64,000 nucleotides of DNA, taken from Eledone cirrhosa. Taxonomy: Eukaryota. Below are positions 30,200 to 63,001 of the stretch, piece by piece (positions within the stretch are counted from its first letter, which is position 1; every line of letters starts with the position of its first letter). The notes under the pieces are model-generated. The model did no database searches and was not told the origin of the DNA. It saw only the letters and a program-made list of their open reading frames with translations. A program made the position numbers and the translations under genes. The DNA is taken from contig OZ024743.1 in the NCBI GenBank assembly GCA_964016885.1, positions 231,012,001 to 231,076,000 of the forward strand, read 5' to 3'.

Positions 30200-30350
30200 A
30201 CTATTGGTCGTTAGCATGCTCAACCAGCCGTGACGCTTAAACCAATCAGCTGTAGTAATTCAGTGAAACTACACACTGATTGGTCGAAATACAGTTTACA
30301 GGGCTTTGCATTCTGGAGCCACTTTTCTCTGTATAAAATGTATAAAAGGT
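30200..30350 (+). promoter_or_regulatory. Putative pLTR promoter: CCAAT boxes, GAGCCACTTTT motif, tandem TATA
   Basis: attgg ~30204, aaccaatcag ~30240, gattgg ~30278, GAGCCACTTTT 30316, TATAAAA at 30332 and 30342. Confidence 0.55.
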
Positions 30351-30410
30351 AGGAAATTTACCCATCTCATTACAGTTGAAAATTGCAAACTCGACTGTCA
30401 CCACATATCA

Positions 30411-30449
30411 TGAACCTGAAGATTGCGAAAGCATGAAAGTACTTGTTCA
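30411..30449 (+). ncRNA. Minimal hammerhead ribozyme in the PLE pLTR
   Basis: tgaac CTGAAGA t-tgc-gaaa-gca-t GAA AGTACT T gttca. 5-bp stem I, GNRA-capped stem II, palindromic stem III as in PLE minimal hammerheads. Confidence 0.8.
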
Positions 30450-30595
30450 ATTAACACTTAGAATTTAATATTCTATCATACTATTTCATTATAATACCAT
30501 TATATATATTTTAAAGGATTGTAAATAAAACGAGTAAATCAGACAAAGTTGGAATTCCTCTTATTAATATATATATATATATATATATATTTAAG

Positions 30596-30690
30596 CCCTG
30601 ATGATTTCCTTCGAATAAAATATTTCTAGTCATGAAGAAGCCATTTCTATATTAAATACTTATACGCTGCTATGTATTGAGTACCTTAGT
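30596..30690 (+). repeat. Decayed copy of the 8.2-kb hammerhead cassette
   Basis: ctgatgatttccttcgaataaaatatttctagtcatgaagaa...ctatattaaa..ttatacgctgctatgtattgagtacctt aligns to the reverse complement of 8160-8250. Core GAAA and UH are mutated. Confidence 0.7.
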
Positions 30691-31790
30691 TACTGTGGTT
30701 ACTCTCAATTGCACCTCACACACACACACACACACACACACACACACACACACACACACACACACACACACACACACACACACACACATACACCCACACG
30801 AACGCACATACATACATATGTATATATATATATATATATATATATATATACATATATATACAAATATTCATACATATCCGCATACATACATGCATACATG
30901 GGTTTGTATATATTTACAGCGCAATTTATCTTATATATTTATCTACATGCACCATATTTTCATAAACCACGTATAATTGTTGTCTTCTCAAACTTCACTT
31001 TCTACATATCTCTTTTTGCAGATCCCGCTATTTGAATAGAATTTCCATTACTCTTAGATATACAATAGGGTGTATTATATATTCATTCCTAAACTGTAGG
31101 AATATTTAACCACGATTATAAGCCTGATGTATTGTCCTTAAATCCTTTTGATTCTATGAAACTGCAATTCCCCCAACCTGTAGTATTAACCTTTGCAATT
31201 TTATTAGTTTACATAAGATAGAGAATTGTGTGAATAGAAGGAGAAATGTGGGCGAAATGAAGAGAAATAGGGAGAGAATGGAAGGAAGAGACATTCGATT
31301 TAAGTACTTAACTAGTATTTCCTTTATCGACTCAGGAAGAATGAAGTGTAAAGTTTAATTAGGTGGGATTTGAACCGAGAGAGCAAATAAGCCGGATGCA
31401 ATACCGGAAAACATTCTCTTCGTCGCCCTCACAAGAACCCCAATTACCTCTCTCTCTCTCTTTCTCTCTCTCTCTCTCTCTCTCTCTCTCTCTCTCTCTC
31501 TCTCTCTCTCTCTCTCTCTCTCTCCCTCTCTCTCACTCTCTCTCTCTCTGTCTCTCTCGCTCTATGTTCATATATATATATACAGACACACACACACACA
31601 TATATATATATATATATATGCGCATATATATTTATACATGTTTGTTGAGACATACATACATCTATATGTAACCCCATATATATGTATATATATATCCAAC
31701 AACACACCCAGGAGCTGGACATATCGATGTATTGACAGAGTGAAACACACTTCAACAACATGTGTACCTGTCTTTCCCACACCAATTCGG

Positions 31791-31845
31791 ACTGCCTGAA
31801 GAGGTCACAGCCAATAATAGCTGTCACCGAAATATATATGCCAGT
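31791..31845 (+). ncRNA. Hammerhead-like motif, probably impaired at the cleavage site
   Basis: actgc CTGAAGA ggt-c-acagc..gctgt-c-acc GAA ATATATAT G ccagt. Strong stem II, but G at position 17 or mis-registered stem I. Confidence 0.6.
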
Positions 31846-32075
31846 AAATTTATAATTCATATTAAACGAAACCAAATTCTACATAAATGACTTTCTTATT
31901 TTATTTTATATATATATATATATATATATATATATATATATATATATATATATATATATATATATATATATATATATAAAATAATATAAGTAAGTCAATT
32001 ATGTAAAATTGATTGCCAAGACTGGAATTGAACCTTCAGCACAGTTGAGGTTTGTCATACATCAATTTATATATG

Positions 32076-59180: not shown

Positions 59181-60624
59181 AGTCTCCTTCAGCAACAAAT
59201 TCACCAGTTACGGCACCAATATCATTAGCAACAATATCAACAGCAGCACCGTTATCATAGTCGATGCATCATCAACTCTTTCAAAAAGAAGGCATCAAAA
59301 CAACTACATAAAGCATACTTCAAATATATCAGGAACAAAAGCAGAAACATACGAATTATTTAGTACAGATAACATCAGCACAAGAACTTAAAACTTCAAA
59401 CACCTGTTCTGTGTGTTAACACACTGTGAGAGTTATATTACCCAAACATATACATACTCAGTGGACTGAAAGAGTTAATCAAACGAAAGCTAAAATAAAA
59501 ATATATAAATAGAAATATATAATAAATATAAAAAAGACAACTAACATACACACACACACACAAAATAAAACACAGTTGTCGTTTCTGTTTCTATTTGATC
59601 TCGAAATACTTTTTTATTTTACGGAAGAAGTACCGTTTGAAGGTTATATACAATACAATAAACAAAATAATAAAAGAAACGTGAAAGGCACCTAACATTT
59701 GCCCCTAAACAATATCCATAGTTGCAGAATGTTCTCGAAAAGTATAGTTGGATCTTTCTTTTTTTTTTCTAGCTTTTCTGTGTTGCCGCTTGACCTAACC
59801 AATCAAGTTGATATTGGTTCAAGTTTGGCAAAAGGTTGGTTGTGTTTTCTTAGTAATATTTTGGCTTTCGGTTTCTCTGTTTGTTTGAATTATATAAATA
59901 TTTTCTTTCTATCATTATTTCTATCCAGTTTACACAACATTTCTCCCCACCTCTCTCTTTATAAATATATATATGCATATATATATATGCATATATATAT
60001 GTATATATATATATATATATATATATATATATATGTGTGTGTGTGTGTGTGTATGTATGTATATATACACGTGTATATATATATATATATATATATATAT
60101 ATATATATAAAGAGTACCCCCCGGCAATCGCAGTCCCGGTTATTCGCGGAATTTTCCTTAGAACCTAACTAATAATCGTTCGTGGAAACCACCACTTCCG
60201 GAATCGTAAATATTTTCCACGATACCTTTATGATTTTTTTCGTGGTAATATATATTCTTTCATGCTTTTTAAAGCAAGATTATTGATATAGAAATATTAC
60301 GCGGTTCTTCAATATTCGCGGGTGCCCTAGGTACATGGGAACACCGTATATATATATATATATATATATATATATATATATATATATATATATATATATA
60401 TATATATATAATAAAGCACAAAAACAAATGACATGGTATAACAGACAAATGTATGTTAGACTCCCGATTAATATATTAGAAAAAGAGTCTTATCTATGCA
60501 GAGCGCTAGGTACACATACATGGCCGCCCTCTCTCTCTCTATCTCTCTCTCTCTGTCTCTCACACACACACACACAAATACACACACACACATATATATA
60601 TATATATATATATATATATAACAG

Positions 60625-61330
60625 ATTATAGAAAACAATCAATTTTTTTTGTTTAATAATTATTCGGTCCTCAATGTTGCCATTGACTGACCGACGGTCA
60701 AAAATAATACAGATACAATATAGACACAAACACATATATATAGTTTATCATAAATCTTTCGTTGCACATCTGCAACATCGTCAGTGGTGCTATTGTTTCC
60801 TCCTGCTGAATTGTATGGCTACGCCATTTTTATTCAGTCTGTCTATATATTTATTTATTTGCTTGTTTGTTTATTTGTTTATTTTATTTTGTCTTCTTTG
60901 CGCATGCGTTTGCGTGTGTGTATAGTGTTTTGTTTGATGTGTGATGTGTGTTCGTGATTGGGTGACTAATGTGTGTTTATGTGTTTGTTGTTATTGTGTT
61001 TGTGTATGTATTTATTTATTTATTTATTTATTTATTTTATTTTATTTTATTTACTTATTTATACTTCTCTTAGGTCAGTGTTGTTTGTTTGGGTGTTGTT
61101 GTTATTCCATTCATTCTTTCTGTTTAGTCTTGGTCTTCTAAGTTCTATTTCACTGGCCTCTCTGATTTGCCTATCTGCTGGGTCATTTCTATGTTTAAAT
61201 ATTATTCTACTTTCTATGTTGTCTATGTTACCGTCATGTTGTTGTTTGGTATGTTCGTATAGCACTGACCCGTTTTTTCGTCCTTTTAGTTCCCCCAGTG
61301 TTGGTCTATCCTATGCCATCTTAACATATT
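60625..61330 (-). mobile_element. PLE 3' fragment (GIY-YIG C-terminus + pLTR)
   Basis: LYEHTKQQHDG..FKHRNDPADRQIREASEIELRRPRLNRKNEW matches PLE endonuclease ends. Hammerhead lies downstream on the same strand. Confidence 0.8.
60747..60788 (-). ncRNA. Minimal hammerhead ribozyme (slightly decayed)
   Basis: Minus: acca CTGACGA t-gttgca-gatg-tgcaac GAA AGATTT A tgat. Confidence 0.7.
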
Positions 61331-61409
61331 CCCACACACACACACATAACACCCATATACTCACACACACAACTCCCTCCCCCATTTCTGCTAATAGAAT
61401 CATCTTCCA

Positions 61410-62472
61410 ATATACACACACACAAGCACACAAATAAACATACATATCTTTACATTCTTTATTCAATAGAAAATCTGAACTCTGACACCCCAGCGAACTA
61501 ACTATATTCACTGAACCAGAACAATTCTCCCATCCCATTTCTCTTGACCATTATATTTTGCTTGTCATAACATTCTCTAAAAAGGCTACAGAATAGATTT
61601 CCAAATAAGGGCGCGAATATTTAATGAAAACTTGTTCACGTGACAGTCATATTTTCATTTATAACCAATCAAATTACGTTTATTAAAAAAAGCCTTCGTG
61701 AGCCCCTTTTTTTAAGTAAAAAGAAATTCAAACACACACACACAACACACACACACACACACACACACACACACACACACACACACACACACACACACAC
61801 ACACACACACACACATACACACACACAAGCACACAAATAAACATACATATCTTTACTTTCTTTATTCAATAGAAAATCTGAATTCTGACACCCCCAGCGA
61901 ACTAACCATATTCACTGAACCAGAACAATTCTCCATCCAATTTCTCTTGACCATTATCTTTTACTTGTCATAAAATTCTCTAAACAGCTACAGAATAGAT
62001 TTACAAATAAGGGCGCGAAAATGTAATGAAAACTTGTTCACGTGACAGCCATAATTTCATTTATAAATAATCAAATTACGTTTATTAAAAAAAGCCTTCG
62101 TGAGCCCCCCTTTTTTAAGTAAAAAGAAATTCAAACACACACACACAACACACACACAAGCACACCAATAAACATACATATCTTTACTTTCTTTATTCAA
62201 TAGAAAATCTGAATTCTGACACCCCAGCGAACTAACCATATTCACTGAACCAGAAGAATTCTCCCATGCAATTTCTCTTGACCATTATCTTTTACTTGTC
62301 ATAAAATTCTCTAAAAACGCTACAGTATGGCTTTCCAAATAAGGGCGCGAAAATTTAATGAAAACTTGTTCACGTGACAGCCATAATTTCATTTATAACC
62401 AATCAAATTACGTTTATTAAGAAAAAAAGCCTTCGTGATCCCCCCTTTTTTCAAGTAAAAAGAAATTCAAAC
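61410..62472 (+). repeat. Three tandem ~330-400 bp units separated by (CA)n
   Basis: gggcgcgaa recurs at ~61608, 62011 and 62343 with matching surrounding sequence. Confidence 0.9.
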
Positions 62473-62690
62473 ACTCATATATGAAAATACAACCTGTGAC
62501 AATCCCCCCCCCCCTTCGTTGAAGAGATTTGTAACGTGATCTGTCGCGAAATTTATTTTAATTATTGACCAACCAATCAGATTACTTCTCGAAAAACCTG
62601 GCATTTCGAGCCACTTTTTCCATATAAAAGAAGTAACATTCAGAGACCAACCAGATGTGAGAAAAACCACAGACCCTCCATCTCAACTCT

Positions 62691-62728
62691 ACATTTGAAA
62701 AGCAGAAGAAATGCGAAACCGGTAAAGG
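62691..62728 (+). ncRNA. Minimal hammerhead, U3-A8 variant, weak stem I
   Basis: acat TTGAAAA gca-gaagaaa-tgc GAA ACCGGT A aagg, 72 nt after a TATA box. Confidence 0.55.
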
Positions 62729-63001
62729 AACCAAATAAATATATATATATTTAAAAAAATAAGACTCAAGTTGCGTTTTCGATTTCATCTTTTTTTCTAT
62801 AGATATTAATAATATATATATATATATATATATATATTATTAATATTATATATATATATATATTATAAATTAAATATATAAAAGTTTACATATATATATA
62901 CATACATATACATATACGTGTTTTGCAACTGGTCACTTTGTGGCTCAATGAAAAATTAATAAATTAAACAATCAGAGCTATATATCATAAAACAACAATA
63001 T

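Follow-up and report, generated by a model that had tools for sequence, protein, structure and literature searches.

Penelope-like elements in the analysed window

The sequence analysed, referred to here as the window, is a stretch of 64,000 nucleotides (nt) from Eledone cirrhosa (assembly GCA_964016885.1, contig OZ024743.1, positions 231,012,001 to 231,076,000 of the forward strand), and all coordinates are counted from its first letter. Three sites in the window (loci 1, 2, and 3) share a compact cassette in which an 11-mer, GAGCCACTTTT, precedes a TATA box and a minimal hammerhead ribozyme. Judged by their sequence context, they are the 3' pseudo-long-terminal repeats (pLTRs) of Neptune/Nematis-type Penelope-like elements (PLEs) of three families, designated A, B, and C. 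The cassette probably constitutes an upstream RNA polymerase II (Pol II) promoter resembling those of the host histone H2A and H2B genes.

The second open reading frame (ORF2) of family A yields matches to reverse transcriptase (RT; RVT_1, E 2.9e-6, just under the profile cut-off) and to a GIY-YIG endonuclease (EN; E 3.3e-6, above the cut-off), with the linker CNDNRCGTC (C-x4-C-xx-C). The same motif is found in families B, C, D, G, and J, and a CX2-5CxxC between RT and EN serves as the definition of the Neptune/Nematis type (PMC8557442; here and below, statements on cited papers refer to the accessible parts of their text). Further PLE hallmarks are partial-tandem pLTRs, an inverted 5' arm, a tail, and microsatellite targets, and 4.2-kb tandems occur at two other genomic loci (L160 and L161). 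The identification of the three sites as pLTRs in the original prediction is borne out by an RT and GIY-YIG ORF before locus 1, a GIY-YIG remnant before locus 2, and the linkage of family C to GIY-YIG domains elsewhere. The single ORF of EN+ PLEs was not found in these families: ORF1 overlaps ORF2 at T_TTT_TTA in A, B, and C, which is likely a -1 frameshift site, and a six-T run stands at the junction in 4 of 4 (A), 21 of 25 (B), and 14 of 18 (C) contexts. One family J copy has a single frame and possibly carries a deletion. The features are as follows.

Family A (locus 1)
26449..27786, plus strand: ORF1, open reading frame of 445 aa from the ATG
27705..30032, plus strand: ORF2 with RT, C-x4-C-xx-C linker, and GIY-YIG endonuclease (domain profiles)
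27720..27726, plus strand: T_TTT_TTA heptamer in the ORF1/ORF2 overlap
30203..30283, plus strand: CCAAT/ATTGG boxes at 30203, 30242, and 30279
30313..30326, plus strand: H2A/H2B-like element CTG-GAGCCACTTTT
30332..30348, plus strand: duplicated TATA box (30332, 30341)
30372, plus strand: predicted transcription start, A at TATA+31 (from copy 5' ends)
30411..30449, plus strand: minimal type-I hammerhead, core from 30416, predicted cut after 30444

Family B (locus 2)
35966..36587, minus strand: inverted arm
36668..37341, plus strand: 5'-truncated RT-thumb/GIY-YIG remnant (tblastn, 32-37% to ORF2)
38393..38490, plus strand: upstream module with TTGGCGCAAAA (~38394, ~38480), CACATG (38419), and CCAAT (38436)
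38505..38529, plus strand: CTG-GAGCCACTTTT and CATAAAA (38523)
38553..38561, plus strand: predicted start region, TCAGA, with two alternatives and weaker support than in A and C
38595..38630, plus strand: minimal hammerhead, U3-A8 core, GCAA for GAAA, predicted cut after 38627

Family C (locus 3)
61433..62470, plus strand: tandem upstream modules, three copies of ~300 nt, without TATA
62573..62630, plus strand: CCAAT (62573), GAGCCACTTTT (62608), and TATAAAAG (62623)
62653, plus strand: predicted transcription start, A of CCAGAT, TATA+30 (from copy 5' ends)
62691..62728, plus strand: minimal hammerhead, U3-A8 core from 62695, predicted cut after 62724

In this family A copy, the truncation of the 5' pLTR falls beyond the hammerhead, and an inverted arm (~26190-26293) adjoins it there. 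Of the 150 genomic matches listed for the first 180 aa of ORF1, 33 are 100% identical, and an older subfamily carries one TATA, TATATAAG. The inverted arm of family B holds a hammerhead (36064-36093) and a decayed motif, GAGACACTTTG, at 36173-36183, and the GIY-YIG domain of its remnant lies at 36940-37329 (E 1.1e-5); the TTGGCGCAAAA words of its upstream module are presumably E2F-like. No variant is listed at 10% or more for 38505-38541 in four contig sets. The family C modules follow the order GGCGCGAA - CACGTGAC - CCAATCAAAT - GAGCCCC/GATCCCC, and other family C copies carry GTGAGCCACTTTT in the upstream module. Locus 3 is a truncated copy, other copies of its family sitting behind RT/GIY-YIG domains.

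Separate from the locus 3 pLTR, the end of a family C ORF1 and the start of an ORF2 frame occupy 63600-64000 (heptamer at 63949-63955), preceded by an inverted repeat (63012-63131/63393-63512). In family B, CTCGTGTG of the leader is predicted to form a stem with CACACGAG next to the point where ORF1 begins, and A and C have analogous stems; in this region before ORF1, two element ends are separated by 35-60 nt, a situation reminiscent of PAc of Anolis with its AC-rich RT start.

A conserved motif-TATA-hammerhead cassette

The 11-mer is exact at 30316, 38508, and 62608, as had been claimed, and lies on one strand only in the pLTRs of the window. With up to one mismatch it has four matches in the window, compared with a shuffle mean of 0.73, and none of 100 shuffles reached four. 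TATAAAA or CATAAAA starts 16, 15, and 15 nt after the start of the motif at loci 1, 2, and 3, in agreement with the predicted spacing of 15-16 nt. The hammerhead cores start at 30416 (C3-G8 type), 38598, and 62695 (both U3-A8 type). The predicted distance of 72-75 nt from TATA to core holds at 75, 75, and 72 nt, although at locus 1 the position of the second TATA has to be corrected from 30342 to 30341. CCAAT precedes each motif, as predicted, but its spacing is variable (-74, -72, and -35), and locus 1 also has ATTGG at -37 and -113. The three pLTRs had been described as otherwise dissimilar, which is correct for locus 1, for which no blastn alignment to loci 2 and 3 at E<1e-8 was found, but not for loci 2 and 3, where 38508-38629 and 62608-62726 align with 75% identity over 122 nt (E 9e-14).

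A search of the 3.0-Gb genome, part of the check proposed with the original prediction, returned 10,232 matches to the motif with TATA versus 1 for the control and 13,293 versus 349 for the 11-mer alone, the motif being enriched in pLTRs. A hammerhead core was reached from all 30 sampled motif-plus-TATA loci, at 87-100 nt in 26 of them and after a tandem module in four, and TATA variants across copies stay within the consensus (TATAAAAG, TATATAAG, CATAAAA). The geometry is conserved, as claimed, but it is not invariant: the TATA-to-core distance is ~85 nt in family E, and two families, D and G, are without the cassette.

Families were also surveyed from GIY-YIG hits rather than from the motif. 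Among copies with a visible hammerhead, the cassette stood 60-130 nt ahead of it in 17 of 19 (A), 10 of 11 (B), and 8 of 8 (C), and in none of 11 D copies or the single G copy. The older family E also carries it. Families F and H are known only from truncated copies, the family J pLTR was not found behind its microsatellite tract, and the cassette was found in none of six loci with retrozyme-type hammerhead repeats. The upstream module is tandemly duplicated in B (124 nt), E (~134 nt), and C (167-400 nt). In full-length copies, the motif lies 338-347 nt upstream of ORF1 in family A (18 of 30 ORF1 starts), ~302 nt upstream in family B, and ~286 nt upstream in family C; where elements are inserted in tandem, each ORF1 is thus preceded at 285-340 nt by the cassette belonging to the neighbouring copy upstream.

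In the place of the cassette, family D (L123, L124, L132, L141) has repeated TGTTTGTAAATAACA words, which we take to resemble forkhead sites, 60-240 nt before the hammerhead. Retrozyme-like tandem hammerhead repeats of 424-490 nt (L314-L319, L197) were also observed, some with an upstream ATTTGCAT octamer.

Predicted transcription start sites from genomic copies

Since retrotransposed copies record the 5' end of their template, the positions at which copies end were mapped to locate the start site. Ends were anchored downstream of the hammerhead in 53 copies of family A and 58 of family C (the first 30 matches and 20 further regions each), in a sample that covers the first 43 Mb of one chromosome and counts both arms of inverted insertions. 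Seven A and 12 C copies extend past TATA-40, and the other 46 and 46 are truncated. Truncated copies starting at TATA+29 to +35 number 17 of 46 in A and 21 of 46 in C (38 of 92 together), compared with four and three ends in the 68 positions upstream (-39 to +28; p 5e-14 for A and 7e-18 for C). The peak lies at +31 in A, where eight of the 46 begin exactly, and at +30 to +33 in C. Thirteen of the 38 start-site copies, read by eye, adjoin microsatellite or unique flank directly, and fold-back geometry alone therefore cannot explain the peak. A partly overlapping set of copies anchored on the hammerhead agrees for A and C. The signal in family B is weaker and spread, with ends among 13 copies at +25, +26, +30, +31, +36, +38, +38, and +40.

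Transcription would accordingly start at 30372 in A, ~38554 in B, and 62653 in C; the copy ends place the predicted start ~30 nt downstream of a TATA consensus, at a pyrimidine-A step. On this genomic record, a TATA promoter with its start at TATA+30/31 is very probable. The start had been placed ~45 nt before the ribozyme, and the copies, beginning at TATA+30/31 and thus 42-44 nt before the core, fit that estimate well. Contig depth rises near 38554, as would fit a start site there; depth does not give a copy number and was not counted as evidence.

Resemblance to host histone H2A and H2B promoters

The region before each start codon was collected for 50 host histone loci, of which four were dropped (one with a wrong start and three without a recognisable promoter or stem-loop); one H4 locus had no TATA match, and two H2B and one H3 loci without a flagged stem-loop were kept. 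An exact GAGCC lies 15-16 nt before TATA in all 13 H2B and in 6 of 12 H2A promoters (9 of 12 H2A with up to one mismatch). It was found at this place in none of 12 H3 and seven H4 promoters, none of nine linker-histone (H1-type) loci of 12 found, and none of five HSP20 loci, and permuted 5-mers at 15-16 nt average 4.7 of 9,513 background TATA-like sites (~0.05%). In 12 of 13 H2B genes, TATA and ATG are separated by 40-68 nt, so that the element is upstream of the transcription start. The cassette shares with these promoters (CTG/GT)GAGCC 15-16 nt before TATA and, further upstream, the order of the H2B boxes: CACRTG is followed by CCAATGAAATT in H2B promoters, and in the same order at other spacings in B, the C module, and E, while CCAAT-S-AAATT is common to the transposon upstream modules and H2B, also in H2B order.

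Scored with a histone-only matrix, families A and B and the upstream module of C fell within the top 0.06% of background, and the C main module fell within the top 0.4%. Local alignment against shuffles gave z scores of 4.2 (A with H2A), 6.0 (B with H2B), 4.3 (C module with H2B), and 2.7 (E with H2B), compared with at most 1.0 for the cassette-less families D and G; because these scores and the motif counts draw on the same motifs, the former add no independent support. From the element through TATA, 22 of 28 columns of family A match one H2A promoter (L216). Differences in layout were also found: host H2A/H2B pairs have two opposed elements with TATA boxes on both strands, whereas the window pLTRs point in one direction only, and the tandem module duplication in B, C, and E and the box spacings depart from the host promoter.

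Together, these comparisons suggest that the GAGCCACTTTT-TATA cassette is probably an upstream Pol II promoter modelled on the H2A/H2B promoter, with a likely start at +30/31 and a predicted dimer-dependent hammerhead cut site 72-73 nt further on, and that the factor reading it is likely the one that acts on host H2A/H2B. Several points weigh against this reading, beginning with the make-up of the copy-end sample described above and with the bias of integrated copies as a record, because cut RNA may exist yet stay uncopied. The words differ consistently by one base: host promoters have CTGGAGCCTAY or GTGAGCCTACTT and the transposons CTGGAGCCACTT (A, B), TTCGAGCCACTT (C), and GTGAGCCACTT (C upstream module), that is, GAGCC-T-AY versus GAGCC-A-C, a difference that leaves the shared factor a hypothesis. 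The exact shared core spans 5-8 nt of sequence and was recognised post hoc, and the members of each group compared, histone genes on one side and transposon families on the other, are not independent of one another. The match is weak for the C main module (z 1.6 and 1.2) and for the E main module (matrix rank 16%), and family A also scores z 2.1 against H3. The host promoters compared were those of histone and HSP20 genes, and the element may serve other host genes. Families D and G, which are without the cassette, are abundant. In ORF2, family A is 46-49% identical to B or C, B and C share 56% identity, and B and D 60-74%, and a quick tree of ORF2, A | ((C,E),(G,(B,D))), in which the cassette-less D and G are nested among the carriers, implies three cassette changes (one gain and two losses, or three gains); this tree was obtained by a quick search without bootstrap on the families of this genome only, with E represented by 286 aa and four rows under half filled.

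The principal alternative is that the cassette is an ordinary TATA promoter of a Penelope clade, its H2A/H2B likeness reflecting a general core-promoter element or chance. The shortness of the match and its one-base difference from the host word, the weak scores of the C and E main modules, the small number of non-histone promoters compared, and the confinement of all carrier families to one clade would be expected under this alternative. Against it stand the H2A/H2B-like TATA spacing, the absence of the word from H3, H4, H1, HSP20, and background, the H2B order of CACRTG and CCAAT-S-AAATT, and the genome-wide rarity of the exact host-type pattern GAGCCTAY-TATA (79 matches versus 53 for the control). 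We consider this alternative unlikely. Thirty of the GAGCCTAY-TATA loci were read: two are H2A promoters, one is a family C copy, 12 belong to two other repeats, and the rest are chance-like.

Two other repeat families (L233, L238, and similar; L241, L244, and L252) carry GAGCCTAY 16 nt before a TATA-like word. Judged by sequence, each histone class has its own word before TATA: host H4 and several H1 promoters share CTACGTCCG (presumably HINFP-like) ~15-20 nt before TATA (L163-L174, L494, L496, L497), and many host H3 promoters carry AACGGTCTC at the corresponding place. A GATCC pentamer precedes TATA in sea-urchin histone genes, and human H4 has a GGTCC/HiNF-P site. An origin of the motif from the histone 3' stem-loop was rejected: the host loop is GGCCCTTTTHAGGGCC, no hairpin is formed in B or E, and Rfam Histone3, which matches locus L190 twice, matches none of four PLE loci.

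Hammerhead ribozymes and the fate of the transcript

The three hammerheads show the features of minimal PLE hammerheads, namely C3/U3-UGAN-G8/A8-A9, GAAA, UH, a stem II, a short stem I, and a palindromic stem III (AGUACU in A, ACCGGU in B). Several departures were noted: locus 1 is without the usual G10.1-C11.1 pair, the core of locus 2 has GCAA for GAAA (the A13C change of family B, a family of thousands of copies), and stem I of locus 3 is damaged in this copy and has at least 4 bp in other family C copies. The stem II sequence varies and remains paired in A, B, C, D, F, and G. These ribozymes are numerous in the genome, with 5,901 exact copies of the family A 29-mer, 35,792 matches to the U3-A8/CCGG form (control 67), and 49,633 to the C3-G8 pattern (control 555). 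No hammerhead is among the 150 Rfam matches listed for the window, of 161 in all. Minimal PLE hammerheads, including the U3-A8 variant, are known and described as inactive as monomers and dimer-dependent (PMC4209133), their reported activity is low (PMC4209133, PMC11167929), and the effect of A13C was left unsettled in PMC3088659. For PAc of the anole, cleavage depends on protein, insertion in vitro proceeds without cleavage, and RNA-seq shows no read ends at the site (PMC11167929).

The original prediction held that the ribozyme would remove the cap from the transcript. The fullest form of this alternative accepts the promoter and has the hammerhead cut most transcripts ~72 nt after the start, and a further form extends to linear or circular templates or cap-independent translation. 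In its favour, the distance from the predicted start is 42-44 nt to the core and 72-73 nt to the predicted cut in A, B, and C, even though A shares no sequence with B or C. Folding predicts intermolecular pairing of the stem III palindromes in dimers, the 5' ends of two family C copies coincide with the base that directly follows the predicted cut (+102), and processing and circles were proposed in PMC4209133. The copies themselves speak against it: the 38 of 92 truncated copies that begin at the predicted start carry the predicted cut site intact, and ends within 3 nt of the cut are not enriched (3 of 25 downstream ends in A and 3 of 22 in C, 6 of 47 together; p 0.14 and 0.18). The A13C core of family B, the reported inactivity of monomers, and the behaviour of PAc point the same way. 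The claim of decapping was therefore not upheld; routine decapping appears quite improbable, as do cutting of most transcripts and its extension to alternative templates or translation, and cleavage may affect a minority of the RNA or RNA that is then not copied.

A last alternative, which we regard as highly improbable, takes GAGCCACTTTT, which fits the initiator consensus BBCABW, as an initiator, the 'TATA' as part of a short first exon, and the GT after it as the donor of an intron containing the hammerhead. TATA is followed by GTAG in A and B and by GTAA in C, B and C also have pyrimidine-rich AG sites further downstream, and Drosophila virilis Penelope offers a precedent (PMC2377424); the alternative was rejected because the GT is missing in old A copies and family E, the copy 5' ends lie downstream of the GT and not at the motif, and the word in H2B genes precedes a TATA that leaves just 40-68 nt before the ATG. 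No GT-AG joint was found in five contig sets of unrecorded type, a result used neither for nor against an intron.

A model for the histone-like cassette

If the cassette is a promoter modelled on that of H2A/H2B, then the copy of it in an upstream tandem element, ahead of ORF1 of the next, would supply the promoter, and the host factor reading the H2A/H2B element would also read the transposon version, biasing expression to proliferating or germ-line cells. Such S-phase or germ-line timing is a tentative suggestion from sequence likeness. With transcription from TATA+30/31, the promoter would not be copied from its own transcript and, lying upstream of its own start, would be regenerated only from tandem read-through RNA, which fits the excess of promoter-less short copies. 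The hammerhead would be mostly silent on RNA that gets copied, its activity requiring either a dimer formed by two pLTR copies or the help of a protein; cutting would then trim tandem read-through RNA or decap a minority. The cassette would be ancestral to the clade and replaced twice, in families D and G. It is conceivable, though somewhat doubtful, that this PLE clade captured or mimicked an H2A/H2B promoter long ago, kept it while the PLE proteins diverged to less than 50% identity, and uses the histone factor for S-phase or germ-line timing. If so, histone-type promoters have been dispersed across the genome in over 10,000 copies, and comparison with them defines an undescribed H2A/H2B-specific element of this animal group. 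Copying a histone promoter would also be a way for a transposon to couple its expression to dividing cells.

Comparison with known systems

The one dissected Penelope promoter found in the literature, that of D. virilis, lies within the pLTR and is internal and TATA-less, with an Inr, a DPE, and an intron (Schostak et al. 2008, PMC2377424). It resembles the present families in that the pLTR promoter is donated by an upstream partial-tandem copy (PMC2377424) and a hammerhead lies in the 5' leader (PMC4209133). In the families described here, by contrast, the predicted promoter is of the TATA type, lies upstream of its start, and includes an H2A/H2B-like element, and an intron finds no support; this is a second architecture, with an exact predicted start. 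Pen2a_Av of Adineta vaga likewise has a putative TATA and an Inr-like sequence in the pLTR, direct and inverted pLTRs, and a tail (Arkhipova et al. 2013, PMC3846280); it differs in being one family, with a TATA-Inr gap of 20 bp, and in the accessible text no conserved upstream word or histone link is reported. The hammerheads are essentially like those of metazoan PLEs (Cervera and de la Pena 2014, PMC4209133) and PAc (PMC11167929), sharing the type-I core, short stem I, palindromic stem III, U3-A8 covariation, position in the pLTR, and thousands of solo and opposite-strand pairs, to which family B adds A13C. The accessible text of both papers holds no description of the distance from hammerhead to start site. 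The HeT-A 3' promoter (as cited in PMC2377424) is donated by an upstream neighbour, as here.

No account of a histone-like PLE promoter or motif was found in the literature searched, which excluded subscription papers, Repbase, and most supplements. None of the papers listed as containing the 11-mer is, by its title, on retrotransposons or promoters, and the motif is absent from one supplement of PMC8557442. Promoter motifs are not given in the accessible parts of PMC13525598 or PMC12210499, and promoter text is absent from those of bioRxiv 10.64898/2026.07.22.740005. pLTR promoters and hammerheads are already known; the likeness to host H2A/H2B promoters is new here. This likeness and the genome-derived start site are the valuable results, and the decapping idea is the weak part. 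The role of PLE hammerheads is narrowed, the RNAs copied into the genome having mostly kept their 5' leader uncut.

Mouse L1 monomers are tandem promoter modules of a different element class. Tandem or replaceable promoter units of this kind, in mouse L1 and HeT-A, resemble the module tandems and the promoter exchange between related families seen here; we know of no likeness to histone promoters in mouse L1 monomers or HeT-A.

Other sequences in the window

Further hammerhead-like cores of other repeats occur at 8163-8312, 30597-30688, 31796, 32080, and 56480, one of these repeats being a short element directly behind the 3' end of the family A copy. A long minisatellite with units of 9, 19, and 28 nt and spurious open frames covers 13900-17970. 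Inside inverted repeats of 39667-44685, the minus strand encodes part of an RT (43536-44195; RVT_1, E 4.8e-9). A repeat of 470-590 nt is present in four copies that are ~94% alike (25480-26068, 46408-46995, 47917-48521, and 50787-51268).

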